A DNA stretch of 64,000 bases, from the IMG/VR virus record IMGVR_UViG_3300046170_000323; one strand, written 5' to 3'. The stretch is from a virus. Taxonomy: Duplodnaviria > Caudoviricetes. Below, piece by piece: positions 49,856-64,000 of this stretch. Within the stretch, counting starts at the first letter, position 1, and every line of letters starts with the position of its first letter. The notes beneath the pieces were generated by a model. The model saw only the letters and a program-made list of their open reading frames with translations. It did not search any database and was not told the DNA's origin. The translations under genes were made by a program, and so were the position numbers.

Positions 49856-50542
49856 GTCTAATGCACTGAACCATTCTTTTGCATAGAGTCCATTTTTGTG
49901 TTGGGGAAACCAAGGCCCACCATCTGTATAATGTAAGATCTTTGGAGATCCATCACGAGGTTCTTCGTGTACATTAATCAACCAGTTCCATTCGATATCG
50001 AATTCACCGATCTCCCATTCACACAACCACTGGAACTGGTGAAACCAAATCCCATTATAATCTAAGTTGTTTACTAAGTCTGGTGTGAGAACACGATTTG
50101 ACGGATGTGCGCAATTGAACATAATCAAACTAGACCAGTTCTTTCTCGTTGTGCCGTCTGGTAACATTGGATATCTGAATTTCTTCTGACCATCCATCTT
50201 GAGTCCCTCTTCAAAATCATAATTAGGTTTTGCAACCATGATTGCATAATCATCATCTGCCTGATCTAGAAGGGGATTGATATCTGTCAACATCAACATG
50301 TCACTATCGATGAATGTTGCCCATCCCTTATAGTCGTGCAAGTAAGGTACTAGATATCTTGTGAAGGTAAATTCAGTAGCACTCAAAGGATCATCTGGTC
50401 TGGTGTAAATACCCCGACTCCTGAGATCATTGATTTTAAGTGGTAAGACGTTTATGTCTTTACTGTGATTGTAGAGACTCCACTCCATCACATCATAGGC
50501 GAGTGATTGTCTGGAATCCCATCCCATATATAAATTTCTCAT
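49811..50542 (-). CDS. Glycosyltransferase (GT8-like)
   Basis: GWDSR, TEFTFTRYLVP, FIDSDM (DxD), RKNWSSLIMFN, LHYTDGGPWF. Confidence 0.85.
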   Translation of the reverse strand: MRNLYMGWDSRQSLAYDVMEWSLYNHSKDINVLPLKINDLRSRGIYTRPDDPLSATEFTFTRYLVPYLHDYKGWATFIDSDMLMLTDINPLLDQADDDYAIMVAKPNYDFEEGLKMDGQKKFRYPMLPDGTTRKNWSSLIMFNCAHPSNRVLTPDLVNNLDYNGIWFHQFQWLCEWEIGEFDIEWNWLINVHEEPRDGSPKILHYTDGGPWFPQHKNGLYAKEWFSALDSFENGLDISLSEVG

Positions 50543-50554
50543 TCAATTCTCCAT

Positions 50555-50581
50555 AAAAAAAGGGCGGCACGAATGCCGCCC
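50555..50581 (-). terminator. Intrinsic terminator
   Basis: GGGCGGCA-TTCG-TGCCGCCC followed by T7. Confidence 0.9.
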
Positions 50582-50603
50582 GTGACCGCCTATATTTAGG
50601 TGA

Positions 50604-51014
50604 TTAGAAGTTGAACGAGACGCCCACTTCTACTTCGCCACGATCTTCTGAATCGAAGTTCCATGACGTTTCACCATATGCAGTAACACCGCCACCTAGT
50701 GCGATATCTGCACCCAACTCTAGAGTTGGTTTTGTTCCATCTTCCCAAACATTCTGAATGGCAAAAGTCTGAACCTGATGCGTGTCCAGTTTCGTACACT
50801 GTCAATGGTACTTCTGCCCAAACTGACAGAGGCCCAGCCGCTGGTGTATAACGCAGTTCTGGTTCGATTGTGACGTGATTAGTTTCCGCTTCCACTTTGT
50901 GGAATGCTTTTAACTTCTGTGTTGAGTTCCAAACCAGGCACTGGTAGGTCTAGCGCCCATAGCGGATGTTGAACAACAGATCCCCATGACAAGTGAAGTA
51001 ATGATCATACGCAT
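50604..51014 (-). CDS. Putative outer-membrane beta-barrel protein (several homopolymer indels)
   Basis: Reconstructed: signal peptide, alternating beta-strands, C-terminus EVEVGVSFNF* (terminal Phe); RBS GAAAGGA. Confidence 0.55.
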
Positions 51015-51043
51015 TTAAATTCCTTTCTTATAACATGCATAAC

Positions 51044-51073
51044 AAAAAAAGAGGAAGAGACGAATCTCTTCCT
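51044..51073 (-). terminator. Intrinsic terminator-like hairpin directly upstream of the OMP gene
   Basis: AGGAAGAGA-TTCG-TCTCTTCCT followed by CT7. Confidence 0.75.
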
Positions 51074-51220
51074 TCTGATACTATTATTTAGGGTTTTTTC
51101 TGCGATGCAGAAGACTCTTTCGGAAAATCAAAATATCTTGTGGTATATTTGTCACTTAAACTTTTTTCAAATTATTTTATAAGTACTTGTTTTCCTTAGA
51201 TTCTTTTTTTCGTGCCGGGC

Positions 51221-51252
51221 TTGACATTTGTGCCCTTTTCGTGTTAGTATAA
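51221..51252 (+). promoter_or_regulatory. Early promoter
   Basis: GGCTTGACATTT...TAGTATAAT. Confidence 0.7.
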
Positions 51253-51281
51253 TCTTGAAGTTAATAGAGAGAGGTACAAAT

Positions 51282-51917
51282 ATGCTTTGTTATCCAACAT
51301 CAATGTCTGACCAAGTTGACCAGTGGCGTAACGCAGGTTACGAAACCAAACTGATCCAAGGTTATCTTGACTATCTGCAAAAGCAGAAGATGAGTCAGAA
51401 TAAAGGTACTTACGGTAAAGATTCCGAAAAGACCAAAACCTACAAATGTGAGTGGGCGTTCCAACGTGAGTATCAAGTAAAAGAGTTTGACACTATCCGT
51501 CAAGCGCAGAAACGTTGTGACCAAATCACCAAGTCTGCCTTGTGGGCAAAGTTGCGTGACGAAAAAGGTCGTGACATAATGCCTGTTTCAGTAAATTCGA
51601 AACAACGTAACACTGGTCGTCACACTGCAGGTTGGGCACGTGGTAACACGATTACTCTTGACCTGATCGTTGGTCTTGACGAATACACACTGATCCATGA
51701 GATGGCTCACTGTCTAGGTAACTGGCATCATGGTCGTCAGTTTCGTCGTGATCTGTTGAAACTGGTTTCACGTTTCATGGGTGCTGAACCTGCAAAGATC
51801 TTGAAGTCCAAGTTCAAGGAAAAGAAACTTGCGTGTGGCGAACAACGTAAACCTTTGGCTTTCGAGAAATGGATCGAAGCAAAAGAACGTATGACTAAAA
51901 TGAGGAGTGCACAATAA
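51282..51917 (+). CDS. HExxH zinc metalloprotease-like protein
   Basis: TLIHEMAHCL...HGRQF. Confidence 0.75.
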   Translation: MLCYPTSMSDQVDQWRNAGYETKLIQGYLDYLQKQKMSQNKGTYGKDSEKTKTYKCEWAFQREYQVKEFDTIRQAQKRCDQITKSALWAKLRDEKGRDIMPVSVNSKQRNTGRHTAGWARGNTITLDLIVGLDEYTLIHEMAHCLGNWHHGRQFRRDLLKLVSRFMGAEPAKILKSKFKEKKLACGEQRKPLAFEKWIEAKERMTKMRSAQ

Positions 51918-52330
51918 TGAACTACGTTTACGCAGAAGGTTCGACAAAACTAAAACGTTCGATTGCAGAACAGGTGGTCAGGTTCTGCATTGACGAACTG
52001 ATGCCTCGTATGCGCACGTTAGAGATTGATGTGATCTTGAATAACAAACTGGAATCACATCAATACGGTTACTGTTGCGCAATCGATACTCGTGAGTTCG
52101 AACTTGAAGTAAACGCAAACCTCTCCCTCTCTAAACTGGTTACGACGATCTGTCATGAGATGGTTCACGTGATGCAGTACGCACGTAAGACATTAGATAT
52201 AACGAATCAGTCTGATCATTCGACATATGACGAATATCTGGATCTCTGGTACGAAGTCGAAGCAAGAAAATTTGAGAAAATTTTGACGAAAAAGTTTAAG
52301 TCATTGAAAACATTAGGAAAGAAAATTTAA
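51917..52330 (+). CDS. HExxH (SprT-like) protein
   Basis: TICHEMVHVMQY...WYEVEAR. Confidence 0.8.
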   Translation: MNYVYAEGSTKLKRSIAEQVVRFCIDELMPRMRTLEIDVILNNKLESHQYGYCCAIDTREFELEVNANLSLSKLVTTICHEMVHVMQYARKTLDITNQSDHSTYDEYLDLWYEVEARKFEKILTKKFKSLKTLGKKI

Positions 52331-52348
52331 AATAATTACAAAAAAGGC

Positions 52349-52377
52349 TTGCCTTTTCCTTGTTTATACCCTATATT
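52349..52377 (+). promoter_or_regulatory. Early promoter
   Basis: TTGCCT-N17-TATATT, followed by leader GTAAGTTGATCGAAAGGA. Confidence 0.8.
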
Positions 52378-52405
52378 ATAAGAGTAAGTTGATCGAAAGG
52401 ACGAA

Positions 52406-52612
52406 ATGATGTTTGAAGTTGGTATGGGATTTTTGCGCCAGTATCGTGACTACACTGCAAAAGGCGAGATCACATCGATCTCAACAGACGCAGATGATGA
52501 GACACTGATCACTGTGATGTACACAGACGGTGCGGTAAAAACCTACACAGAAAACTGTGTCGAACAAAACTTAGGTCGTCGCATGATCGTAACAGAGGAA
52601 GTAATATGGTAA
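52406..52612 (+). CDS. Early hypothetical protein
   Basis: Promoter and GAAAGGA RBS upstream. Confidence 0.75.
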   Translation: MMFEVGMGFLRQYRDYTAKGEITSISTDADDETLITVMYTDGAVKTYTENCVEQNLGRRMIVTEEVIW

Positions 52613-52788
52613 ATTTTATGAATGATGTCTGGACATGTCAGACTATTGCAGGCGCACCAGTTGTGGAACGCCGTGTGTGTTACGGTTCGGAACCTGATTT
52701 CGAATTCGTTACCCAACTTCCCAATGGTGAATATAACTTCTATTCTGCCTTTGACATGTATGAAAACAAAACGGAGTATTCGCAATGA
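52606..52788 (+). CDS. Early hypothetical protein
   Basis: Coupled ORF. Confidence 0.65.
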   Translation: MVNFMNDVWTCQTIAGAPVVERRVCYGSEPDFEFVTQLPNGEYNFYSAFDMYENKTEYSQ

Positions 52789-53021
52789 TCGTATATAAGA
52801 ATTACACACAAGAAAAAATCGCAGAAGGTTTCGATCTTCTAGTAGAGGGCATGAGTAACTGGAAGATGCCTATTAAGACGACAATCAAGTCTGAAGATTT
52901 CCAGTGGGCATCAGATGCCTGTGCATACTTCACAGGATCTGTTCTTGAAAAACAAGTTGAAACATTTGAAGGCGACATCGTCGTCTATGCAGATGGTTAC
53001 TATAACACGATTGGAGCTTAA
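52785..53021 (+). CDS. Early hypothetical protein
   Basis: NWKMPI...ACAYFTGS...ADGYY; coupled ORF. Confidence 0.75.
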   Translation: MIVYKNYTQEKIAEGFDLLVEGMSNWKMPIKTTIKSEDFQWASDACAYFTGSVLEKQVETFEGDIVVYADGYYNTIGA

Positions 53022-53023
53022 TC

Positions 53024-53354
53024 ATGGGACTTAATGTATCAGTATATCGCAACTCAGAATTTGGGGAATACGATTGCACAAATGGTGGAATCAGTTCTAC
53101 AAACAATCGTTTGAATGTCGTCAACTGTGACGGCCCTTTTGATCCGACTGATGATCGCCCTGCAGTGATGGTCGTGGATGATCGTCCTTGTGGTAGTCCT
53201 TATCCTAAACTGGTTCCCGCCGTGTTCGATCGAAATCACTGAGACTTGGGAACGTGCAAAGGGTTGGTTTATGTTTGGTGGAAACTATGGTGGATGTTCA
53301 GACAGTCGTTTTGAATACAACATTCTTCCTATCCATGATCGTACGGAGGCTTAA
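53024..53354 (+). CDS. Early hypothetical protein (indel near 53238)
   Basis: DCTNGGISS...MFGGNY...SDSRF...PIHDRTEA. Confidence 0.7.
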
Positions 53355-53356
53355 TT

Positions 53357-53725
53357 ATGTGGAATCCTAATAATGCAGTCTGGGGATGTACTCCAGAAAC
53401 TCGTGAACTTTCAGACAAGTTGAGTAACCTTGATAACTTCCCTTCAGTTGGTGAAGTATCGAACAAGAAAAAGAATCCTTCGCTTGAGAAGTTTCGCAAG
53501 GCGCAGAATGTCGTTTACGATATCTTTAACAACGGTCTTGGTAATCGTGGTCGTGAACTTCGTGTTCTGGGTTTGAAGAAACATCAACTTGCACTTGAAG
53601 AATGGTGTCGTTACTCAGGACGCACGATCCGTGAATCCAACTGGGATCAAATCAACGAGATTGTTGAGGGTGCATTTACCCCGATTGTGATGGACGCTTC
53701 AAGGGAACAGGGGCTGATCTCCTAA
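53357..53725 (+). CDS. Early hypothetical protein
   Basis: LEKFRKAQNVVYDIFNNGLGNRG; RBS GGAGG. Confidence 0.75.
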   Translation: MWNPNNAVWGCTPETRELSDKLSNLDNFPSVGEVSNKKKNPSLEKFRKAQNVVYDIFNNGLGNRGRELRVLGLKKHQLALEEWCRYSGRTIRESNWDQINEIVEGAFTPIVMDASREQGLIS

Positions 53726-54179
53726 TAGAGAGGGCTTTATAAGCAGGGTAGAGTTCATAACCTACCTTGTTCTTTTGATTACCACCAAGGATGACATAAT
53801 AATCTATCCCATCTATTATTCTTGTTTCAATGTAGAAACCGACATGTCCTTTCCATGCAGCATCGCCTCTTGGAAAGACGACGATGTCTCCAATCCTTGG
53901 TTCCCAAACATCAATCCCCCAAAACAAAAAACTTCGTGCCATCAGAGGATATTCATTGACGGACTCTGAACCAGCCACGTTATTTAATTTTAGGATAGAG
54001 TTCACGAAAGCCGCACACCATTCTGTGTGGACTGGATCTACTCCTGTAAGGTCTTTGATCTTTGACCTATCTTTCTTTTCGTGGAGGCCGATGAAACCAT
54101 GTGCTGCCTTCACGAATGCATAATCATTGTGTTTGTATGGTGATTGATAATTGAATATCGGATCAGATTGAGGGTCCAC
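53676..54179 (-). CDS. TIGR02594-family NlpC/P60-like cell-wall amidase
   Basis: EWCAAFVN, ARSFL, GDIVVFPRG, GHVGFY, LGGNQ. Confidence 0.88.
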   Translation of the reverse strand: MDPQSDPIFNYQSPYKHNDYAFVKAAHGFIGLHEKKDRSKIKDLTGVDPVHTEWCAAFVNSILKLNNVAGSESVNEYPLMARSFLFWGIDVWEPRIGDIVVFPRGDAAWKGHVGFYIETRIIDGIDYYVILGGNQKNKVGYELYPAYKALSIRRSAPVPLKRPSQSG

Positions 54180-54290
54180 AAGCGGATAAAAAGTAACCTA
54201 CCACAACGAAAAAAATTATTTTTTTCATAGAAACTCGCTAAGTGATTGTTTTTGTTGGAAAAGAAAATTTGAAATAATTACAAAAAAGGC

Positions 54291-54319
54291 TTGACATTTG
54301 ATGTAAAAAGTACTATATT
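54291..54319 (+). promoter_or_regulatory. Early promoter
   Basis: TTGACA-N17-TATATT, followed by leader GTAAGTTGAGAGAAAGTGAG. Confidence 0.85.
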
Positions 54320-54351
54320 ATATAGGTAAGTTGAGAGAAAGTGAGAAACGA

Positions 54352-54607
54352 ATGTTTAGAATTCCTAATTTTTATGAGATGTCCATATCCTTTGACGAGG
54401 CATGGAAAACTATCCAGAACCTTGGTAATGGTGACTGTCTTGAAGGCATGAACGTTATGAACAGTGAATGGGATGCGTATGTCCGTGGTGACAACGATGA
54501 CATTTTCGATTGTGACGATGACTGGTGGGACAACTGGGCATATGAAGCAAACGCCTTTAACGTTGTATACGAAGGCATGAGTCAATTATTTGGAGAGGGC
54601 TGCATAA
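54352..54607 (+). CDS. Early acidic hypothetical protein (indel near 54598)
   Basis: WAYEANAFNVVYEGM...FGEAA*. Confidence 0.7.
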
Positions 54608-54608
54608 C

Positions 54609-55043
54609 ATGGCATATATTTCACAACAAGAGAAAAAAGAACTCGCACCTGCAATCAAAGCAGTATTGAAAAAATACGGTGTGAAAGGTTCTATCGCAAT
54701 CAACCATCACAGTTCTTTGGTTGTAAATATTAAATCTGGTGTTCTGGATTTTCTAGGTGCGTCTCAGAAGTACAATGATCGTCGTGCAGAGATGCGTGGT
54801 GAGGCACCTTACAATGTTGGTGGTTATCTTCAAGTGAACACTAGCTGGTGTGAACAGTGGATGGAAGAGATTGGTGAAACCAAGATCGCAAAGTTCTATG
54901 GTGACCTGATCAAAGCGATGAAAGGTACACGTTGGTACAACAACTCTGACATCATGACAGATTATTTTGATTACGCATACTACATTGATATCAATGTCGG
55001 TAAATGGGACAAAGATTACGTTCTGGAAAATAATTCAAAATAA
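54609..55043 (+). CDS. Early hypothetical protein
   Basis: MAYISQQEKKELAPAIKAVLKKYGVKG...YYIDINVGKWDK. Confidence 0.8.
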   Translation: MAYISQQEKKELAPAIKAVLKKYGVKGSIAINHHSSLVVNIKSGVLDFLGASQKYNDRRAEMRGEAPYNVGGYLQVNTSWCEQWMEEIGETKIAKFYGDLIKAMKGTRWYNNSDIMTDYFDYAYYIDINVGKWDKDYVLENNSK

Positions 55044-55067
55044 TTGAAAAAAAGTTGCCCCAAGGGC

Positions 55068-55096
55068 TTGACATTTGGGGCAAAAGGTATTATATT
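55068..55096 (+). promoter_or_regulatory. Early promoter
   Basis: TTGACA-N17-TATATT, followed by leader GTAAGTGAGACAAAGGA. Confidence 0.85.
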
Positions 55097-55125
55097 AATA
55101 AGGTAAGTGAGACAAAGGAAACGAT

Positions 55126-55312
55126 ATGCAAATAGTTGGTGGAATGATAGTTTTTTCTGGTTTGATGATTATGGCTGGATCTGCAGGTGACTGTGATGGT
55201 CAATGTATGGAACTGGCAAATTCAACAGGCGAGATGATTCAAAGCCCTCGTTATGGGTGGTGCTCTTACCGCTATCGGTGCGTTTTTGATGTCAATGAAA
55301 GGAAACCTCTAA
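55126..55312 (+). CDS. Small membrane protein (indel near 55245)
   Basis: Two hydrophobic segments flanking GDCDGQC. Confidence 0.6.
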
Positions 55313-55325
55313 GATGGAGATCGTT

Positions 55326-55490
55326 ATGAATGAGTTGGTGAAGGACATACAGGTTCTTGAAGATGCAGTAATTAATCTTACTGAAGGTGCAAGTGATGAG
55401 AGACGTATGGCAATATACACTCTCGAACGTTTGATTGCAGAAAAGTCTGCAATTGTAGATCAATTTGAAATGGAGAATGCATATGCCTAA
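55326..55490 (+). CDS. Small hypothetical protein
   Basis: Manual translation MNELVKDIQVLEDAVINLTEGASDERRMAI... Confidence 0.7.
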   Translation: MNELVKDIQVLEDAVINLTEGASDERRMAIYTLERLIAEKSAIVDQFEMENAYA

Positions 55491-55701
55491 ATCAAAAGCA
55501 ATGAAAATCGAAGACATGTTCGATGATGAAACACTGGACGCAATGGATGACGCCGCAGGCGTTGACCGTTTGACCAAAGACGGAGACTTCAGTCTTTACT
55601 ACGATCTGGGCCCTGATGCCCGTGGTTGGACTGAACCAAGTCTAGAAGACTACGGTCTTGACAGTCACGCCTTCTCAACAGGTGGTCTGGACTTCGACTA
55701 A
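55483..55701 (+). CDS. Acidic hypothetical protein
   Basis: Coupled ORF MPKSKAMKIEDMFDD... Confidence 0.65.
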   Translation: MPKSKAMKIEDMFDDETLDAMDDAAGVDRLTKDGDFSLYYDLGPDARGWTEPSLEDYGLDSHAFSTGGLDFD

Positions 55702-55706
55702 ATATT

Positions 55707-55868
55707 ATGGAATGGATTATGGCCTTTGGATTCATCTTCTTTTTGATGATCCTCTGTTTTTCCTTACTGCGTTTCGCAATAGGTTTTTTATCATGGTCTT
55801 GGCGTAATTCATTCCTAATACTTGCCAGCATTATAATCTTAATACTCCTCTTAGCTCAGCTGGATTAG
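55707..55868 (+). CDS. 53-aa two-TM membrane peptide overlapping tRNA-Arg
   Basis: Manual translation MEWIMAFGFIFFLMILCFSLLRFAIGFLSWSWRNSFLILASIIILILLLAQLD*. Confidence 0.55.
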   Translation: MEWIMAFGFIFFLMILCFSLLRFAIGFLSWSWRNSFLILASIIILILLLAQLD

Positions 55869-55922
55869 AGCATCTGCCTTCTAAGCAGAGGGTCGTAGGT
55901 TCGAGTCCTACAGAGGAGGCCA
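55845..55922 (+). tRNA. tRNA-Arg(TCT)
   Basis: Full cloverleaf, anticodon loop CTTCTAA, GTTCGAGT T-loop, encoded CCA. Confidence 0.95.
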
Positions 55923-55942
55923 ATATAAGGAAAAACAAACTC

Positions 55943-56818
55943 ATGAGTTTTGAATTCGACTTTACCAAGGAACACCTTGGGGAAATTATTTCTGCAGATG
56001 CAGATGATTGGTATGACGCACTTTGCGAACTTCTTCCAAAGTACGGTATTACAACTGAACGCAGAGTTGCACACTTCCTATCTCAGTGCGCACATGAATC
56101 TGCAGGTTTTAAGAGACTAGAAGAAAATTTAAACTACTCTGCAAAGGCTCTACGTGCCGTCTTTGGTAGATACTTCGGCGCATCTCCAAAACGTGATGCA
56201 GACGAGTATCACAGACAACCAGAGATGATTGCAAATTATGTGTACATGGACGAGTTCCGTAAATACAAAATGGGCAATGTCAACGAGGGTGACGGATGGT
56301 TATTCAGAGGCCGAGGCTTGAAACAGTTGACTGGCCGTGAGAACTATACACGCTTTGGTAAAACTGTAGATATGACTGCAGAAGAAGCGGCAGTGTACGT
56401 TGCAACACCAGCGGGTGCAATTGAAAGCGCATGTTGGTTCTGGGACGCAAATAATCTAAACGATATTGCCGATGGTGATGACGTTAAGAAAATGACGAAA
56501 AAAATTAATGGTGGATCTATTGGCTTGGATGATCGTAAGAAACGTTACATGCACGCTATGGAAGTTCTAGGAATGGACGCAGAAGATCTCGCTGCAGATG
56601 ATGATGACATCGAAGATATCATTGACGATATTGGTGTACTACGTAAAGGTGCAAAAGGCGATGGAGTCAAACTGATGCAAGAAGCATTGGGTATTGGTGC
56701 AGACGGAGACTTTGGGCCAGGCACAGAACGTGCATTGAAAAAATGGCAGTCAGACAATGGATTGACTGCTGATGGTATCGCAGGGCCAGCAACCCTTGCA
56801 AAACTGTTTGACGACTAG
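55943..56818 (+). CDS. GH19 endolysin with C-terminal peptidoglycan-binding domain
   Basis: FLSQCAHESAGF, ENLNYS, FRGRGLKQLTGRENY, INGG; LQ...ADGDFGPGTE..LKKWQ...L.ADGIAGP. Confidence 0.92.
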   Translation: MSFEFDFTKEHLGEIISADADDWYDALCELLPKYGITTERRVAHFLSQCAHESAGFKRLEENLNYSAKALRAVFGRYFGASPKRDADEYHRQPEMIANYVYMDEFRKYKMGNVNEGDGWLFRGRGLKQLTGRENYTRFGKTVDMTAEEAAVYVATPAGAIESACWFWDANNLNDIADGDDVKKMTKKINGGSIGLDDRKKRYMHAMEVLGMDAEDLAADDDDIEDIIDDIGVLRKGAKGDGVKLMQEALGIGADGDFGPGTERALKKWQSDNGLTADGIAGPATLAKLFDD

Positions 56819-56825
56819 TCGTCAA

Positions 56826-56873
56826 GAAGGGGCGACATCTCCTTTCTCTTACAACTTACAATGTCGCCCCTTC
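56826..56873 (+). ncRNA. 13-bp hairpin with 22-nt CU-rich loop; candidate antisense sRNA
   Basis: GAAGGGGCGACAT / ATGTCGCCCCTTC perfect stem; loop CTCCTTTCTCTTACAACTTACA complements early-gene leaders. Confidence 0.55.
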
Positions 56874-56879
56874 ACTTTA

Positions 56880-56956
56880 CTCAGTGTAGGTCAGTCTGGT
56901 AGACCGCTACGTTTGGGACGTAGATGTCGTTGGTTCAAATCCAGCCACTGAGACCA
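56880..56956 (+). tRNA. tRNA-Pro(TGG)
   Basis: Cloverleaf, anticodon loop TTTGGGA, CCA end. Confidence 0.95.
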
Positions 56957-56958
56957 AT

Positions 56959-57032
56959 AGGAGTGAAGTGTTATGGAAGCACGTTGGATTCCAAATCCAA
57001 AAGCTGGGGTTCGACTCCCTGCACTCCTGCCA
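56959..57032 (+). tRNA. tRNA-Trp(CCA)
   Basis: Cloverleaf, anticodon loop TTCCAAA, CCA end. Confidence 0.93.
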
Positions 57033-57051
57033 GATTTAATGAATAAATAGT

Positions 57052-57195
57052 ATGACAACAGATCACGAAATTACAATGTTTCTACATTTCTGGGCAAGAA
57101 GGGGAATACCTCTCCCAGATCCAACCCACTACCCTAATTCTTTTATGTGGTATGTGAAGATGTATAGGTACTATCAAAATGACAAAGTTAAGTGA
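57052..57195 (+). CDS. 47-aa hypothetical protein
   Basis: LPDPTHYPNSFMWYVKMYRYY; late-type AATAAATA at about 57042 upstream. Confidence 0.65.
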   Translation: MTTDHEITMFLHFWARRGIPLPDPTHYPNSFMWYVKMYRYYQNDKVK

Positions 57196-58150
57196 CGAAG
57201 AACTCGCACATGTAAGAAAATATGGCCCACCATTGGAAGATCCAGTAATAGAGAATTACTTGGATAAGACAGGTCTCAGTAATCCAGACGAAGAGACACG
57301 TGAGACAAAAGTAAAACATCTGCAGTATGGTCTTGACATGGATCAAGAAGTAATACGCAGGGCACAAAAGTGCCAGAGAAATTGGAATTACACCAGAGAC
57401 ATCAATTCATCAGTACGAGATCATCTCCTATGGATTGCACAAAATGCACCTTCGAAACAACACGAAGGTTTTTATGACGTTTACTGGTCAGAAGATAGGG
57501 ACACAATTCAAGAGATGTCCCGATACACTTGGGGATGTACTCACAGTAGAACCCCACCATCAACTTGGAGAAACGCACAAGCAAATGCAAACATGTATAT
57601 TTTGTTTGTTGCGAAAGAACCGTCAGGACAAGAAAACTGTCATGTGGATGGATCCTTAAAAGAAAACAATCGCCCAGAACGTTGGGAAAATGCATATGTC
57701 TCTATTGGTATTGCCATGGGGATGATCTTGTTTACTGCGAACCAATTAGGTCTACAGACTGGGTGTAATAAAAGTCACGGTGATTTTGATGGTGATGATT
57801 ATTTTGAAAACAAACTTGGTATCCTTGAGGATGTCAGAGCTGGTAAGAAAAGAATTGCGTATGGGATGGGTATCGGTTATGGTCAAGATGGTAGACCAAG
57901 ATACGAAACAGATGAAACAGAGATTGCGCTTGGGGCGGGAAATGGTGACACACTCACTGAATATCCAGACATGGGAACTCATCCAACAACAGGCAAAGAG
58001 TTCAGACGTGTTAAGGTTGTAGATACCACAGAAATGGGTGGACAGGAAGTAACTGATCACTACGGTAACGTGCACACCGTTCCACACGACTCTAACATAA
58101 AGATTAACACGATGCGCCCACGTGACATCAAGATTATTGAAATAGAATGA
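57179..58150 (+). CDS. Nitroreductase-fold protein
   Basis: RRAQKCQRNW, NAPSKQ, SIGIAMG...ANQLGLQTGC. Confidence 0.8.
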   Translation: MTKLSDEELAHVRKYGPPLEDPVIENYLDKTGLSNPDEETRETKVKHLQYGLDMDQEVIRRAQKCQRNWNYTRDINSSVRDHLLWIAQNAPSKQHEGFYDVYWSEDRDTIQEMSRYTWGCTHSRTPPSTWRNAQANANMYILFVAKEPSGQENCHVDGSLKENNRPERWENAYVSIGIAMGMILFTANQLGLQTGCNKSHGDFDGDDYFENKLGILEDVRAGKKRIAYGMGIGYGQDGRPRYETDETEIALGAGNGDTLTEYPDMGTHPTTGKEFRRVKVVDTTEMGGQEVTDHYGNVHTVPHDSNIKINTMRPRDIKIIEIE

Positions 58151-58758
58151 CAGATATAAAAAGCATTGTAGACAGAAGTCAGATATGTACTAGGAACTGG
58201 GATCACTCAAAGACGATTCCAGAAGAACATATTGATATCTTTTTACACGCATTGCAGAACTGTCCAAGTAAACAGAACTTCGCCTTCTATAAAATTCATC
58301 TGATTACAGATAAAGAGATGCAGGCGCAGATCTTAGAAGAGACAAGGATCTTCACATTACCAAATGGTGTGACTGTTACTAATAGTCAAAACATGGCAAA
58401 TATTCTTATTGTGTTTGAGAAACCAAACTACAGTGATACCATGTTGAAGAGGAATGAAAAGTATACTTGGTTCAACACCCAACCAGAGTGGGAACTCGAC
58501 AGAGATTCGTGGATGAACATTGGTGTTGCGGCTGGATACTTGAATTACATTGCACATTCCCTTGGTTATGAAACAGGGTATTGTGCAGGTCTGCATCAAG
58601 AGAATGTTAAAAATATAATTGGTTGTGAAAACAATATTGAACTCATGATGGGAATAGGTTTTAGGGATATGGAACTGGATCAAAGAGATCATCACTTTGG
58701 TGAAGGCAGGTTCCCCCACTACAGAAAAGAACCTATCATCGTAGAACGACATGAGTGA
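58147..58758 (+). CDS. Nitroreductase-fold protein (paralog)
   Basis: RSQICTRNWD, NCPSKQN, IGVAAGYL...AHSLGYETGYC. Confidence 0.85.
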   Translation: MTDIKSIVDRSQICTRNWDHSKTIPEEHIDIFLHALQNCPSKQNFAFYKIHLITDKEMQAQILEETRIFTLPNGVTVTNSQNMANILIVFEKPNYSDTMLKRNEKYTWFNTQPEWELDRDSWMNIGVAAGYLNYIAHSLGYETGYCAGLHQENVKNIIGCENNIELMMGIGFRDMELDQRDHHFGEGRFPHYRKEPIIVERHE

Positions 58759-59477
58759 TTATGTTCACGTTAGGGAAGGACACGATGTCTATCCGTTCTT
58801 CAAAGAACTTTTCCCTGACTATCAACCCACAGAAAAGGTTTTAGACTTTGGCGGTAATAGGGGAAATTTACTTTATCACTCTAGTGGTGGAATTACAGAC
58901 CATAATTATACATCTATTGACGTAAGTACTACGGCGCTCGAATTGGGCAAACAGGACTTTCCAAACGCAACATTTATTCATAACAATAAATGGAACTGGA
59001 TGTACAATCCAAAAGGTGTTGAGTTACCTCACTACTGGCCTCTACAGAAGAAGTTTCCAGAGGTTGATTATAAACAGGACTACATCTTTGCATACAGTGT
59101 ATTCACTCATACTGATCTAACTGAGTTTGTTGAGACTTTAGAGTGGTTAAATTGGTTTGATTTCAAAAAACTGGCAGTGAGTGTCTTAGACATCAACAGG
59201 GATGAGATCCACAAATTCTTTTACGATAAAAGGGATAGAGGATTACGGGCATTGTGTTGACCTATCAGAGATGAAAGGTAAAAACATTGCATACCTCTAC
59301 AACAACGAGACAATCTTATACGACAAGATTAGTGCATACAAATTAGATGTTCAACACTTCTTGTCACTATATAACATAGACTTTTTGGTGGAGACGTTGG
59401 GTGAGTATGGATTCAATGTTACAATCGAAAAGCCAGGCAAAGGAATCATTCCTTTTGTCTGCATGGAAAAAAAATAA
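58751..59477 (+). CDS. Class I SAM-dependent methyltransferase (indel near 59240)
   Basis: KVLDFGGNRG, SIDVS, DYIFAYSVFTH. Confidence 0.85.
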
Positions 59478-59497
59478 AAAAAGTTTAATTTAACGCT

Positions 59498-59525
59498 TGC
59501 CTTTTGAGGCAACAAGTGTTATATT
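59498..59525 (+). promoter_or_regulatory. Early-type promoter driving the ncRNA/tRNA block
   Basis: TTGCCT-N16-TATATT, followed by GGTAAG like the other early leaders. Confidence 0.7.
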
Positions 59526-59530
59526 AACAA

Positions 59531-59772
59531 GGTAAGACACAGTGAGTGGTTGTCGACTCCCCCATGCTGAAGTATGGAAAACGACTTTAAGAGATCTGTT
59601 GTCTGTGGTAGCCTGTGCCACGTTAGAAAATAAGACGGGCCGATATTAAAGCAGTACCAAGAGATAGTGAGTTGCTGAACAGAAGTTGACTGTAAAAGAT
59701 TGCAGAAGGTCAACTACTCAACTTGAGGGTCACTCTAATTTACTGCACGTTTGATCGTGGTGTTGATCAAAC
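59531..59772 (+). ncRNA. Unassigned multi-stem structured RNA upstream of tRNA-Gly
   Basis: No ORF; nested stems GCAGTA/TACTGC, AGTGA/TCACT, AGTTGAC/GTCAACT, GTGGTA/TGCCAC, TTTGATC/GATCAAA. Confidence 0.55.
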
Positions 59773-59776
59773 ACAT

Positions 59777-59850
59777 GCGGATGTCGTATAGTGGCATTAC
59801 CTCAGATTTCCAATCTGATGATGAGGGTTCGATTCCTTCCGTCCGCTCCA
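59777..59850 (+). tRNA. tRNA-Gly(TCC)
   Basis: Cloverleaf GCGGATG..., anticodon loop TTTCCAA, CCA end. Confidence 0.95.
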
Positions 59851-59862
59851 AATTTTTAGTTT

Positions 59863-60031
59863 TCACTCGACGGAGTGGGATCGTGGTGACTGAATAATGG
59901 GTGGACGTGCCCATAAAGTACTTCTGAAGATGGTTAGCGCCATGTCTTAGCGGATGCAAGAAGGTTCGAAAGCGAGTTTGACAGGAGCGTCCTGTGCGAG
60001 TAGATGTCGGTAATCCTTAATCCGGCCCACA
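59863..60031 (+). ncRNA. Structured RNA downstream of tRNA-Gly (possibly manA-motif-like)
   Basis: Closing GTGGG/CCCAC; hairpins CACTC/GAGTG, ATGGG/CCCAT, ACAGGA/TCCTGT; no RBS-supported ORF. Confidence 0.55.
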
Positions 60032-60051
60032 CCTTATACTATGGAGTTGTA

Positions 60052-60483
60052 ATGAAAGCATATATTACAGGAACTCGTAGGGGCCTTGGATATGAACTAT
60101 CCAAGGTTTTTGAAACCTGCGACTCTCTTGAAGAGTGTAATGTATTCATCAACTGCAAACATGATGGCGTAGAACAAGTCCGCCAACTCTACCAAGCGGT
60201 AGATCTAGGAGTGAATAAGATCATCAATATTGGGTCGAATTCACCAGACTGTTTTCATCCCGAACCAAAACCCTATGCAGTTATGAAGGCGGCACTTGAC
60301 CATGCCAACGATCAGTTGTTTCAATTAGGTCATGACACTACTATTATTCGTTATGGGTATTTTGACTCCGAAAGAACTGCCCACATAGATGCGCCCAAAA
60401 TGGAAATAGACTACGCAGTTTATATGGTGAAGTGGGTTTTACACCAACCTTACAGAGTAAAGGAAGTAACTGTATGCGTGTAG
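60052..60483 (+). CDS. Short SDR-like oxidoreductase
   Basis: ITGTRRGLG, IINIGS, YAVMKAAL (YxxxK). Confidence 0.8.
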   Translation: MKAYITGTRRGLGYELSKVFETCDSLEECNVFINCKHDGVEQVRQLYQAVDLGVNKIINIGSNSPDCFHPEPKPYAVMKAALDHANDQLFQLGHDTTIIRYGYFDSERTAHIDAPKMEIDYAVYMVKWVLHQPYRVKEVTVCV

Positions 60484-60942
60484 ATATTGAAAGAATTCTT
60501 TTTGAAATAGAAAGTCTCCCTAAGTTTAAAGAACAGATCATGTTGCAGAGTGTAGAACCTGGCGATGATCCTTTCTATGGAACAGGACGAGTGACTGAGA
60601 TCTCTCATAAAGAATACGAGTTCGTCCATCCTACCTTTGATCACATTCCATATCTAAATTCTATTATAGAAAAACTTGGTTTAAAAAGAACTCGTCTTAT
60701 GAACCTATCTCCAAGAACGTGTTACACGTATCATATGGATTATACGCCTAGAGTTCACATTCCCCTAATCACAAACGAACGCTTGTTTCCTAGTCCTCGA
60801 CGACGAAGTACAATACATGCCTGCAGATGGTACTGTGTATCTGGTCGACACTAGACTAAAACACACTGCCATCAATGCTTCTAAAGAGGATAGAATACAC
60901 CTTGTTGGTATCGTCCCTGCTGACTATGTTCTGCCTGAATAA
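60474..60942 (+). CDS. Asp/Asn beta-hydroxylase-like 2OG-Fe(II) oxygenase (indel near 60785)
   Basis: RTRLM, YHMD...RVHIPL; shifted frame ...KHTAINAS..DRIHLV. Confidence 0.8.
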
Positions 60943-60990
60943 ATAGATTTAACCCTTCTGGGTTTCTTTTATTATTAACAGGAGAATATA

Positions 60991-61167
60991 ATGACACTAC
61001 ATGAACAAATCGAACAGGCGTTCGCAGACTACGTGAAAGAGACTGAGTCTTTTGAAGAGAAGGGTGTGAAAGCATCCGCTGCACGTGCAAGGAAAGCACT
61101 ATCAGAAATCACAAAACTCGCAAAAGACAGGCGAGCGGAAATTCAGAACGCAAAGAATGCGGCATAA
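60991..61167 (+). CDS. Hc1 (histone H1-like) family small basic protein
   Basis: Manual translation ...EKGVKASAARARKALSEITKLAKDRRAEI...; RBS AGGAGA; late-type AATAAATA at 60938-60945. Confidence 0.7.
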   Translation: MTLHEQIEQAFADYVKETESFEEKGVKASAARARKALSEITKLAKDRRAEIQNAKNAA

Positions 61168-61193
61168 AAAAAGGGGATCTTAGGATCCCCTTT
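61166..61193. terminator. Bidirectional terminator between convergent genes
   Basis: A-run, GGGGATC-TTAG-GATCCCC, TTT. Confidence 0.8.
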
Positions 61194-61225
61194 CTCGTTT
61201 AGAGTACCGTTTCTACTCTTCTATA

Positions 61226-62198
61226 TTATAATCCGCTTGGAACAATAATATAATGTATCATCAGAACAAGTGCAACTGATGCACCAAGTCCTACCATCAT
61301 CTTACCAAAGTCTTTGGCAACCAATGGGAATACTGATTTAGTTTTCTTCTTACCGAAGTACGTTGCCATTGCAAGTTCACGCCCTGCAAGCAAACCAACG
61401 AACACCCATGTTGTACTCATAGGAATATCATTCAATTCCTTAAAGAAGTACAGACACAACCAATAGAACAAGTCAATCAGTGTTGCAGATCTCACGTAAC
61501 GAGTGTTGTGTTTCTCTAATACGATCTTCTGAATCTTACCACCCTTTTCTCTGAACATAAAGAACAGTCCAGCGACAAATACAAATGATATGAATATCAT
61601 CAGATCAACTGGTACTTGACGTGGTAAGAATACTGCAATGTTTGCCATGTCGTGTGACAACCATGTCCACCACAGACCACCTGTTGCAACCCACTGTGCG
61701 ATGCGCCAGAACTTCTTATTACTTTCGGTGACTGGTTGAGTCTCATCAAACCACTTACCTGTATACTTGTGTATTGCGAACCAGATTGCATATGCAAATG
61801 CGGCTGCAACACCATATCCCATGATAGACTTCATCAACATCTTCTCAAGAACAAATGTACTTGCAAAGACTGACAATACTAGGAATGAAGTTGATACTGG
61901 TACACCTATTCTCGTTAGTAATACGAGGATTGCAGGTGCGGCTGCATGATACCATTGAACCTCTTGCCAAGGTATTTTGTTTAGTCGTTCGTAACTGATG
62001 TCTCCACCATTTACACTCCACCCATACCACAGGGTTGCAAGTAACACTGCACTTGCGGCTGCCCATAGTGTTCTGTAGTGGAATCTCTCATTGTTTGATG
62101 CCATCCATGTGCCGAGAGTTTGCACTGAATCGTTTGCGATAACGGCATACGCCGCCAGTAGGAACCCAATGAGGGCTCCACATAGTAAGTAGTTCCAT
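61226..62198 (-). CDS. PiT/PHO4-like multi-TM transporter (indel near 62175)
   Basis: Reconstructed N-terminus AYAVIANDSVQTLG and repeat HDMANIAV; GVPVSTS and IPMSTTWVFVG repeats; about 9-10 TM segments. Confidence 0.65.
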
Positions 62199-62204
62199 TT
62201 CTTT

Positions 62205-62268
62205 CTCCTTATGCTTGCAGGCTTTACCCCTGCGCTCGCTTGGATGACAAGCGAAACGGACTTGTCGG
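62205..62268 (-). promoter_or_regulatory. Structured leader upstream of the transporter RBS
   Basis: Hairpins TCGCTTG/CAAGCGA and GCAGG/CCTGC; alternative GACAAG/CTTGTC; CTAAATA at 62272-62278. Confidence 0.5.
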
Positions 62269-62280
62269 GAATATTTAGGC

Positions 62281-62309
62281 TTGACTTATGAAATAACAGG
62301 GTGTATAAT
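62281..62309 (+). promoter_or_regulatory. Sigma70-type promoter
   Basis: TTGACT-N17-TATAAT. Confidence 0.8.
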
Positions 62310-62339
62310 TGTTCTACAAATGATCAATAGAATCAACAA

Positions 62340-62868
62340 ATGAGAGCAGAAATGAAAAAATTAGTTATGGCTGCAGTAGCGGCATCAATGATGTTATCTG
62401 GTGCAGTACCTGCATCTGAGTCTTCTACCGATGTAGATTGGGAAGAGATGAAATGTCTCGCATTGAACGTATACTATGAGACACGTTCAGATAGTCTCGC
62501 TGGTCAATACGCAGTGAGTGATGTTGTGTTGAATCGTGTGGCGAGTGATCGTTATCCAAACACTGTCTGTGAAGTTGTACACCAAGGAAAACAAAAACCC
62601 TCTTGGAAAGATCCAAGTAAAATGGTTATGGTTCGCAACATGTGTCAGTTCTCTTGGTACTGTGACGGTAAGGCAGACAAACCAACAGACGAACAATCTT
62701 GGTCAAGCGCCCCAAATGGTCGCCTTTTCTATTATGATATATGGGAAGTATAGAGGGTTGACCGAAGGTGCAACACATTATCATGCGAAGTATGTCACAC
62801 CTTCATGGTCTAAAGATTTATATCAGATAGGTCGTATTGGTCAACATATCTTCTATAGGTATTACTGA
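62340..62868 (+). CDS. SleB/Hydrolase_2 cell-wall hydrolase (indel near 62705)
   Basis: CLALNVYYETR, VVLNRV...YPNTVCEVVHQ, CQFSWYCDG, GATHYHA.YV.PSW, IGQHIFY. Confidence 0.92.
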
Positions 62869-63195
62869 TTACTTTTTACGGAGAGCGTCTGCTCCAAAGA
62901 ATGCAGCAACCAATGCAGAGATAGCAACAAAATATGTTGGAGCAATATCACCAACAATACCTGCGGCTGTCTCTAGTCCAAAGTACGCAGTAAGTACGAT
63001 GGCGAATGGATACAACAGCATTCCGAAAAGGGCGAACCAAGTCATATTACGCATTGCATCACGCTGTGCGTCTTGGTCTTCTAGCGCTTTTCTTTTAAAT
63101 TCTAGGTACATGGCTTTTTCTTCTTCGTCTACCGAACCATCACCGTTTACGTCTGCAGGGTGGTAACCTGCTTTCTTCATATCTTCTTCAGACAT
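62869..63195 (-). CDS. EF-hand-like plus two-TM small membrane protein (holin-like)
   Basis: DVNGDGSVDEEE; two hydrophobic helices; basic C-terminus. Confidence 0.6.
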   Translation of the reverse strand: MSEEDMKKAGYHPADVNGDGSVDEEEKAMYLEFKRKALEDQDAQRDAMRNMTWFALFGMLLYPFAIVLTAYFGLETAAGIVGDIAPTYFVAISALVAAFFGADALRKK

Positions 63196-63245
63196 AGGAA
63201 ACTCCTTGGATAATTAAAGATGCATGCCGAAGAATTCACTTACAT

Positions 63246-63257
63246 TATTTATAAATA
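63246..63257. promoter_or_regulatory. Palindromic bidirectional late promoter
   Basis: TATTTATAAATA contains TATAAATA on both strands. Confidence 0.6.
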
Positions 63258-63270
63258 GTCTTATTGGGTA

Positions 63271-63299
63271 TTGACAAGTATAAAAAAATGTCGTATAAT
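63271..63299 (+). promoter_or_regulatory. Sigma70-type promoter upstream of the tmRNA operon
   Basis: TTGACA-N17-TATAAT perfect consensus. Confidence 0.85.
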
Positions 63300-63330
63300 A
63301 ATGATGTAAAAACAAAATTGGAAATGAAAT

Positions 63331-63504
63331 ATGTGGTTGTTAACACTAATTGCACTCGAACCTGTGGATGGTCATGTTTTGAATCCACATAAGATTTTAG
63401 GTTTCAAAGATGAAGAATCTTGTAAGGCTGTTTCCTCTATGGATGCAGTCTATGTAGACGGTGTTTACTGGAAGGTAGACGCACCCTGTTTAGATGTTTC
63501 ATAG
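63331..63504 (+). CDS. 57-aa hypothetical protein
   Basis: Manual translation MWLLTLIALEPVDG...EESC...APCLDVS*. Confidence 0.55.
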   Translation: MWLLTLIALEPVDGHVLNPHKILGFKDEESCKAVSSMDAVYVDGVYWKVDAPCLDVS

Positions 63505-63516
63505 AAGGAAGATTAG

Positions 63517-63705
63517 ATGCAGAGAAATAGTAGACTACCAAGAAAACCTATGAACTCTGGTGATGAGTGGGATGTGTTAACTGACGCACGTGAGTTCTAC
63601 TGTTATACACAAAGATCTAAAGTTTGCAAAAAGATCAAGAAAGCGTATAACAAAAAAGAACGCAAATGGTTAAACAAAGAATTCTTAGTCGTGGACATGG
63701 ACTAA
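63517..63705 (+). CDS. Hypothetical protein
   Basis: SGDEWDVLT..R...KKIKKAYNKKER. Confidence 0.75.
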   Translation: MQRNSRLPRKPMNSGDEWDVLTDAREFYCYTQRSKVCKKIKKAYNKKERKWLNKEFLVVDMD

Positions 63706-63974
63706 GTAAAGATGTAATTGTTGAAGCAAAGCGAATACGAACTGGACTGGGGGGCAGTACCCCACAGCTCCACCACAAACACATTTACTGAGTGTGTTTT
63801 TGATGGGGGCTGAACTAGGATCGACAGGCGGGCTAGTTGAGTGGAGATTACCGTGGTGACCTACGTTATTCGGTCAAAAACTATAAGTGCAAATGATAAT
63901 TTCGCACCATCTGAGTTACGCCTAGCAGCGTAGCCGCAGGGGGTATGGGTTCCACCTAGCAACAGAAAGGGCCC
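63706..63974 (+). ncRNA. ssrA: Circularly permuted (two-piece) tmRNA
   Basis: Acceptor piece ...GGGGGCAGTACCCCACAGCTCCACCA (ends 63775); hairpin spacer; coding piece GGGGCTG (63806); tag frame 63889-63933 ANDNFAPSELRLAA*. Confidence 0.93.
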
Positions 63975-64000
63975 GTTTTACGTTTGGCATAAATATTTTG

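Follow-up and report, generated by a model that had tools for sequence, protein, structure and literature searches.

A covarying small-RNA family predicted in marine T4-like phages, with a divergent copy between an endolysin and a tRNA-Pro gene

What a strong hairpin does in the few nucleotides between a lysis gene and a tRNA gene is the question raised by positions 56826-56873 of the 64,000-nt stretch of phage DNA analysed here (the window). An earlier note, made from the letters of this DNA, had described a perfect, GC-rich 13-bp stem between the endolysin stop codon and tRNA-Pro, and had proposed that its loop is antisense to the leaders of the phage's own early genes. The hairpin itself was borne out in full: the endolysin stop lies at 56816-56818, the stem starts 7 nt further on, and the 22-nt loop is CU-rich, with a 5' half (CUCCUUUCUCU) that resembles an anti-Shine-Dalgarno (anti-SD) sequence and a 3' half (CAACUUACA) that is complementary to the leader start GUAAGUUG (Table 1). 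Folded together with the 18-nt palindrome that precedes it, the main hairpin reaches -30.7 kcal/mol, a value equalled by none of 200 shuffled sequences (z = -6.05).

Table 1. Coordinates of the hairpin locus and of the candidate target leaders in the window
Feature	Position	Strand	Evidence or remark
Second promoter-leader copy, GTAAGTTGATCGAAAGGA	52349..52405	+	68-aa gene; predicted pairing with the loop -17.8 kcal/mol
Sigma70-type promoter TTGACA-17-TATATT with 26-nt leader GTAAGTTGAGAGAAAGTGAG...	54291..54351	+	105-aa ORFan, ATG at 54352
Third promoter-leader copy, GTAAGTGAGACAAAGGA	55068..55125	+	67-aa ORFan; predicted pairing with the loop -15.8 kcal/mol
Endolysin, 291 aa, GH19/chitinase-like domain and peptidoglycan-binding domain	55943..56818	+	The hairpin is its 3' UTR
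Perfect 18-nt palindrome TTGACGACTAGTCGTCAA	56808..56825	+	Contains the endolysin stop codon; small second hairpin immediately 5' of the main hairpin
Hairpin 5' arm GAAGGGGCGACAT	56826..56838	+	Aligns with the 5' arm of family model R1, 22.2 bits
22-nt CU-rich loop CTCCTTTCTCTTACAACTTACA	56839..56860	+	Sequence
Hairpin 3' arm ATGTCGCCCCTTC	56861..56873	+	Sequence, fold
6-nt spacer ACTTTA between stem and tRNA-Pro 5' end	56874..56879	+	Putative RNase P cut site; no U-tract
tRNA-Pro(UGG) (start 56880), then tRNA-Trp(CCA)	56880..57032	+	Directly after the hairpin

The transcript on which this hairpin would be carried can be narrowed down from its surroundings. We rejected the simplest reading, that of an intrinsic (rho-independent) terminator, as the loop is 22 nt long, the tail (ACUUUACUCAG) lacks a U-tract and the downstream tRNAs need read-through; the sole entry of a terminator scan near the hairpin was a weaker alternative pairing at 56818-56836. 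The minus strand, read as a leader followed by a 7-codon ORF, was also discarded, since its SD abuts the ATG and it has no promoter. A sequence scan from the endolysin stop to the stem found no promoter-like site, and no late promoter of the TATAAATA type is present on the + strand from 52 to 57 kb. Because the tRNAs have no promoter of their own, and none lies between the hairpin and tRNA-Pro, the hairpin must be on the tRNA precursor; with tRNA-Pro 6 nt downstream, we can soundly infer a 3' end made by RNase P. Cleavage at 56879/56880 would leave a hairpin that forms the 3' terminus of the endolysin message or of a processed fragment. The promoter at 55068 is the probable driver of the endolysin, the hairpin and the tRNAs, as no convincing terminator lies between it and the hairpin, and the hairpin and the 55103 leader probably share one transcript. 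A metatranscriptome contig from a relative (~95% identical) covers 56221-56958, including the 3' half of the endolysin, the hairpin and tRNA-Pro; as an assembled contig, it is uninformative on ends, strand and abundance.

Searches among described phages and RNAs returned little that resembles the locus. In INPHARED (megablast and blastn) no relative of the region was found, tRNA-Pro alone being matched; the DNA polymerase (gp43) is ~45% identical to cyanophage gp43, there is no close cultured phage, and relatives number in the hundreds in IMG/VR. The element matched no Rfam family when positions 50000-64000 of the window and five relatives were scanned with cmscan at E <= 1, its best match, to suhB/mmgR (E = 0.71), reaching 23.9 bits where the gathering score is 41; on the same sequences and at the same threshold, neither the AbcR and CcsR covariance models nor the Rfam C4 model gave a match. 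A literature search on the loop string found no paper, and the RNAs listed in the paper on cyanophage S-CREM1 are all Rfam-derived. In the GTDB genomes (185,579 species, 596 Gb), a 19-nt core of the loop had 7 matches, in unrelated soil, groundwater and archaeal MAGs and at chance level; with these matches, and with no sign of a host copy or perfect host target, we rejected the idea of a host-derived sRNA captured by the phage. A stem-based pattern search of IMG/VR yielded, beyond the window's own phage, four unrelated chance hairpins. A metagenome scan for the window-type loop, with the 1-nt deletion from the RNA contig allowed, found the same phage species only.

With regard to the host, the window encodes at 63644-63977 (+) a two-piece (permuted) tmRNA of the alphaproteobacterial type (RF04321, 115 bits; RF01849, 103 bits), with a TTGACA-N17-TATAAT promoter at 63271-63299. 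This type of tmRNA points to an alphaproteobacterial host.

The identity of the hairpin becomes clearer from the uncultured relatives. In IMG/VR, about 60 contigs from marine T4-like phages related to that of the window have this element, once per contig, in the form of a small gene in which a sigma70-type promoter is followed by a 5'-terminal hairpin and then by a rho-independent terminator or tRNA-Gly. The promoter, TTGACT/A-N17-TAnTAT, lies 5-9 nt before a stem of 12-17 bp that closes a CU-rich loop of 22-36 nt; downstream there is either a GC hairpin with a T-run, or tRNA-Gly(UCC) and then a terminator, the tRNA-Gly being 5-10 nt off in many cases. Among the 78 IMG/VR loci with an endolysin 80-92% identical to that of the window, 18 have a homologous hairpin directly after it, and an IMG/VR search with the loop core gave about 50 further loci of the same anatomy.

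Two samples of relatives were used for covariation analysis, one (A2) anchored on the loop and the other (A4) anchored on a neighbouring gene, and hence unbiased for the loop. The anchor of A4 is a conserved downstream gene for a 137-aa HExxH protein, and the hairpin was present upstream of it in 64 of 80 loci; four more loci (L250-253) have a hairpin variant that the model missed. Double changes were found in all 11 pairs of the A4 stem, with 92% paired as against 36-60% when the partner was slid, and in 10 of the 14 pairs of the A2 stem, with 93% paired; in neither sample did any of 500 shuffles equal the real alignment. Conservation of the stem in relatives, which the earlier note had proposed looking for, is accompanied by strong covariation in both samples. 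G-U pairs are frequent in the stem and the model scores 64-78 bits on the sense strand versus 16-24 bits on the opposite strand, indicating that the structure is that of an RNA transcribed from the promoter strand. Changes in the stem sequence are tolerated so long as it remains paired; the loop is constrained, and stays almost the same between phages with diverged stems. Its canonical form, ACCUCUCUCUCAACUCUCUCUC, starts with CACCUC and contains an internal repeat, two CUCUCUC blocks around AA. Variants in relatives include CCUUUCUCUCUCAAC..., CUCCUCUCUUUUCUCACUUUAAAUA and UACCUCUCUUUCUCUCAUUACUCACU, with considerable variation in the 3' half, and the window loop (CUCCUUUCUCUUACAACUUACA) falls within this range.

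Several features near the small-RNA genes deserve mention in their own right. The most constant neighbour of the small RNA (L189-L268) is the 137-aa protein, which has an invariant HEMVH motif and is encoded at 51917-52327 (+) in the window; it has a match in PHROG 10499 and a weak one in PHROG 87, a metalloprotease, and has relatives at 438 IMG/VR loci. In a number of phages (e.g. L090, L093, L099, L101 and L020) there is an inverted repeat within the 17-nt promoter spacer that extends with its 3' arm into the -10 element, and whose arms co-vary between phages (AGTAAC..GTTACT, GATAC..GTATC, AATACC..GGTATT, AGTGTCC..GGATACT and ATGATACT..AGTATCAT), which suggests a hairpin or a symmetric operator that may control the small-RNA promoter. 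The position of this repeat is taken in the window by the palindrome at 56808-56825. The window has an orthologue of the relatives' hairpin-adjoining tRNA, a tRNA-Gly(UCC) at 59777-59850, with a 245-nt leader from a fourth GTAAG-type promoter (59497); this leader has no CU-loop hairpin, and its fold is not significant (z = -1.27). Directly after this tRNA, at 59863-60036 (+), lies a manA-like RNA whose score of 44.2 bits (E = 9e-9) falls short of the gathering score, 55.2.

Judged by this comparison of sequences, the hairpin in the window is a divergent copy of a previously undescribed small-RNA family of marine T4-like phages. It is the most divergent and lowest-scoring family member (about 22 bits with model R1). 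A segment of ~45 nt that holds the promoter in relatives is missing from it, and the palindrome at 56808-56825 occupies the place of that promoter. Since the stem is a perfect 13 bp even though its sequence is unlike that of every relative, selection appears to have continued, which argues against decay. As a member of a family whose stem covaries strongly, and which in relatives has a dedicated promoter and terminator, the window hairpin is very likely a functional RNA. The earlier note had cast it as a later-expressed RNA, a view that we do not uphold: the promoter in the relatives is of the early sigma70 type, and the window copy is probably co-transcribed with an early leader.

The second part of the earlier proposal concerned what the loop might bind. 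The matches that it had quoted to three leaders are exact, comprising 8+8 nt (54326-54345), 8+7 nt (52384-52401) and 6+6 nt (55103-55119). Each leader lies ~7 nt after the -10 element of a TTGAC-N17-TATATT promoter, and GTAAG is probably the very 5' end of the mRNA, so that the match would span the region from +1 to the SD. The leader at 54326 is the loop's best predicted partner (8+8+3 bp, -23.7 kcal/mol) and, self-antisense aside, its top duplex partner on both strands of the 64 kb. When the window was extended by 65 kb, to 129 kb, from a nearly identical IMG/VR contig (G001), the three leaders ranked 1, 3 and 4 among those of 75 sigma70-like promoters, and the added 65 kb held no leader comparable to them. 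Shuffled loops reached -23.7 kcal/mol at the 54326 leader in 1 of 200 dinucleotide and 0 of 200 mononucleotide shuffles, and none of 400 reached the summed pairing over the three leaders; anywhere in the window, 5-8% of shuffles reach -23.7 kcal/mol. Summed over these leaders, the window's own loop attains -57.3 kcal/mol, versus -45 to -53 kcal/mol for canonical loops. The complementarity between loop and early leaders in the window is non-random. As copies of a single promoter-leader module, however, the three leaders together supply about one event of moderate significance, not three. The suggestion that a whole class of early mRNAs could be silenced must be trimmed accordingly, as three leaders do match the loop but all are copies of a single module within 3 kb.

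A comparison with PHROGs assigned no function to any of the three candidate targets; the 68-aa gene is orthologous to a gene of a relative (L099) with the leader GTAAGTTGAGAGAAAGAGG. Near-identical A-rich blocks (aaaatttRaaataattacaaaaaaGGCTTGMC) lie upstream of the promoters, at 52300-52377, 54240-54319 and 55020-55096. An RNA-library contig from a relative joins 54296 to 52372, a junction that suggests recombination between promoter copies in the population.

Beyond the window, two relatives show matches of a similar kind. In one (L209), the leader of the next gene is matched at its GUAAUGA start by the 3' half of the loop, UCAUUAC, and at its SD by the 5' half (-22.5 kcal/mol, 0 of 500 shuffles). 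In the other (G002, a 52-kb contig), loop and ribosome-binding site (RBS) share 20 nt of perfect complementarity at a gene for a 138-aa secreted protein 13 kb away (-42.3 kcal/mol, 0 of 60 shuffles), and the next three best loop partners are also RBSs. Neither the window nor its 65-kb extension contains a homologue of the target gene of G002, and the complementary leader is absent from that gene's distant homologues. The four best predicted partners of the G002 loop are the RBSs, of the (GA)n type, of an operon (L161, G002:28132-31150) for four small proteins, each with a signal peptide or an N-terminal membrane anchor, located just upstream of a gp5-like baseplate hub/lysozyme gene.

Across the family as a whole, a different picture emerged. 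Phages with the hairpin use long, GA-rich RBSs, such as GAGAAAGAGGU, and in nine long contigs the best partner of the loop fell within an RBS window in 3 of 9 cases, and the best five in 14 of 45, with such windows making up 7% of the sequence. This enrichment of ~4x was nonetheless equal for shuffled loops (14 of 45 versus 11.7 ± 2.6). On 149 promoter-proximal leaders, real loops performed no better than dinucleotide shuffles (mean z = 0.03), so the excess of pairing over shuffled loops, which the earlier note had made a test of its proposal, is found in the window, L209 and G002 but not family-wide. Neither was loop/leader covariation, also looked for among the relatives, observed: on its own downstream leader, a phage's loop had no advantage over foreign loops (permutation p = 0.81), and the variant of L250-253 gave no signal with the next leader (134-205 of 500 shuffles equal). 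From one phage to another, the genes that pair best are not orthologous, and the conservation of the loop exceeds that of any identified target. The general tendency to pair is mostly compositional, a CU-rich loop meeting GA-rich RBSs; the three cases of the window, L209 and G002 suggest lineage-specific tuning of the loop.

These tests bear on whether the window copy, taken by itself, is still at work. If it were a decaying remnant that had lost its promoter and whose loop had drifted, the match to the leaders would be a lucky hit in a set of GA-rich leaders, brought out by post hoc selection. Such a history would be in keeping with the missing promoter, the lowest score in the family (22 bits), the confinement of the window variant to this phage species and the share of shuffled loops that attain the same energy somewhere in the window. 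Drift would not, however, be expected to preserve 13 perfect base pairs in a stem unlike that of all relatives, whose changes must have been compensated; the match falls at a prespecified kind of site, where 0-1 of 200 shuffles equal it, and L209, an independent variant, has the same correspondence between the 3' half of the loop and the 5' end of a leader. Transcription of the hairpin together with the tRNAs is, moreover, unavoidable. We therefore consider decay improbable.

A more serious alternative is that the loop binds a protein and not a message. A CU-rich loop could offer a high-affinity site to a single-strand pyrimidine-binding protein and act as its decoy or sponge, with the complementarity to leaders arising as a by-product of composition; candidates are ribosomal protein S1, Hfq, a cold-shock protein and an RNA-binding protein of the phage. 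An RNA expressed early, and strongly, from its promoter would titrate such a protein, which could favour phage mRNAs with very strong SDs over those of the host. That loops and leaders do not co-vary, in either the 149-leader shuffle test or the own-versus-foreign permutation, and that shuffled CU-rich loops find RBSs equally well would both follow from this proposal, as would a loop that is nearly invariant while stems diverge and that is built as an internal repeat. In addition, the gene has a strong early promoter, and a 5'-terminal stem should stabilise the RNA. Composition does not, on the other hand, account for the matches outside the SD, namely CAACUUAC:GUAAGUUG in the window, UCAUUAC:GUAAUGA in L209 and the 20 nt in G002, and a variable 3' half would be odd for a fixed protein site. 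On balance, we see protein titration as somewhat unlikely.

The location of the element at transcript ends raises a further possibility, in which it is a purely cis-acting RNA end element that has no target in trans and whose loop is kept for processing or folding. In relatives, the stem-loop at the 5' terminus would guard a short tRNA transcript against 5'-end-dependent decay; the one at the 3' end in the window would guard the endolysin mRNA once RNase P has removed the tRNAs. The stem in relatives does lie within a few nt of the predicted +1, a tRNA often follows, and the window hairpin is placed exactly at the mRNA/tRNA junction. A stabiliser, though, needs no conserved loop of 22-36 nt, whereas here it is the stem that is free and the loop that is constrained, and in many relatives only a terminator follows the hairpin, leaving nothing else to protect. 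Nor is the hairpin a regular companion of the tRNA: L041/L042 have tRNA-Pro 8 nt after the endolysin stop and lack the hairpin, L170-L173 have an identical tRNA-Pro behind an unrelated AT-rich region, and a search anchored on tRNA-Pro returned relatives with the same tRNA and no upstream hairpin. We regard a role confined to the transcript's own ends as unlikely. These loci also illustrate how strongly mosaic the arrangement of genes is near the endolysin and tRNA-Pro.

The reading that we favour, tentatively and at slightly less than an even chance, is that the element is a base-pairing, anti-RBS small RNA that occludes the SD of phage messages; the sequences show the structure with its conservation and covariation, the anatomy of the gene in relatives and the complementarity, and transcription, processing, pairing in vivo and repression are here what we infer. 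In relatives, a strong early sigma70-type promoter would start the transcript a few bases before the stem, and the transcript would end at the rho-independent terminator or at the 5' end of the co-transcribed tRNA-Gly. The 5' half of the loop (ACCUCUCUCUC, CCUUUCUCUC or CUCCUUUCUCU) has the anti-SD sense and would complement GA-rich leaders, so that the loop could pair with phage mRNA leaders, either in trans or on read-through transcripts, and cover the SD. The outcome would be lower translation or altered mRNA stability. In the window, the promoter would have been lost, leaving the hairpin in the endolysin 3' UTR and tRNA-Pro leader with a 3' end set by RNase P, and the loop would have diverged in its 3' half such that it additionally matches the GUAAGUUG start of the local early leaders; the pairing would then cover nearly the entire 26-nt 5' UTR from +1.

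A broader version of the anti-RBS role can be envisaged, in which the family is a phage-made mimic of the 3' tail of 16S rRNA that reprograms translation globally during infection. The CUCCUUUCU of the window loop equals the last nine bases of what we take to be the usual 16S tail, ...CACCUCCUUUCU-3', which may not be that of the host. Such an RNA, in effect an RNA equivalent of T4 RegA and RegB, might soak up the extended GA-rich SDs of early messages and so time the early-to-late switch, or it might titrate S1, with the loop retuned in each phage lineage to its own set of leaders, as in the window, L209 and G002. We consider global mimicry quite doubtful.

Anti-RBS pairing by a phage RNA would have its closest precedent, in mode of action, in the c4 antisense RNA of phages P1 and P7, which is encoded by the phage, is processed by RNase P, and blocks translation through loops that pair with the phage's own RBS region; its specificity shifts through matched changes in loop and target. 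The element described here is likewise a small structured phage RNA with an exposed loop complementary to a leader/RBS, and in the window it too would be released by RNase P. It has no sequence or covariance-model similarity to c4, however, and consists of a single hairpin with one large CU-rich loop, whereas c4 has a tRNA-like fold with two target boxes. It is also found in lytic marine phages of the T4-like type, in most cases with a promoter and terminator of its own, and its targets are candidates only.

In shape, the element is nearer to AbcR1/2, the CcsR 'cuckoo' RNAs and MmgR/suhB of the Alphaproteobacteria, with which it shares a stable hairpin, an exposed C/U-rich anti-SD sequence (CUCC/CCUC), a rho-independent terminator and a presumed occlusion of the SD. 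Unlike these, it is encoded by phages, lacks an Rfam match and has a longer loop (22-36 nt) of CU repeats, so that the likeness to AbcR and CcsR drawn in the earlier note extends to an anti-SD-like loop on a stable hairpin but not to membership of their covariance models. Small RNAs derived from 3' UTRs and tRNA precursors offer another comparison, among them the CpxQ and SroC types, the sRNAs from tRNA spacers and leaders, and RNAs C and D, small stable RNAs yielded by the tRNA region of T4. The window hairpin resembles them in its position at an mRNA end on a tRNA precursor, from which it would be released by processing; it departs from them in that most relatives would make the RNA as a primary transcript, and in that the 3' end in the window would be set by RNase P and not by a terminator. 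T4 itself shuts off early mRNAs at their SD/initiation regions by means of RegB, an endonuclease that cuts GGAG, and RegA, a translational repressor. What is proposed here for a T4-like phage, the post-transcriptional inactivation of a set of early messages at the ribosome-binding site, would be of the same sort, but RegA and RegB are proteins and the putative effector here is an RNA.

In conclusion, the main value of this locus is that it led to a widespread, covarying small-RNA gene, for which an anti-RBS role is plausible. The element is a new family of a known kind of RNA, near to c4 by mechanism and to AbcR, CcsR and MmgR by shape. Little is known about regulatory small RNAs in lytic phages, and this uncultured lineage of marine T4-like phages is not known to have a described one. 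The family should be easy to study, as it consists of a single hairpin, is abundant, shows clear stem covariation and comes with natural loop variants, some of which track the leader in the same genome; it merits a covariance model, with which it could be annotated in marine viromes. If the anti-RBS role is true, the family would represent an RNA solution to the shut-off of early messages that T4 achieves with RegA and RegB, and would be the second phage antisense RNA released by RNase P after c4 of P1.
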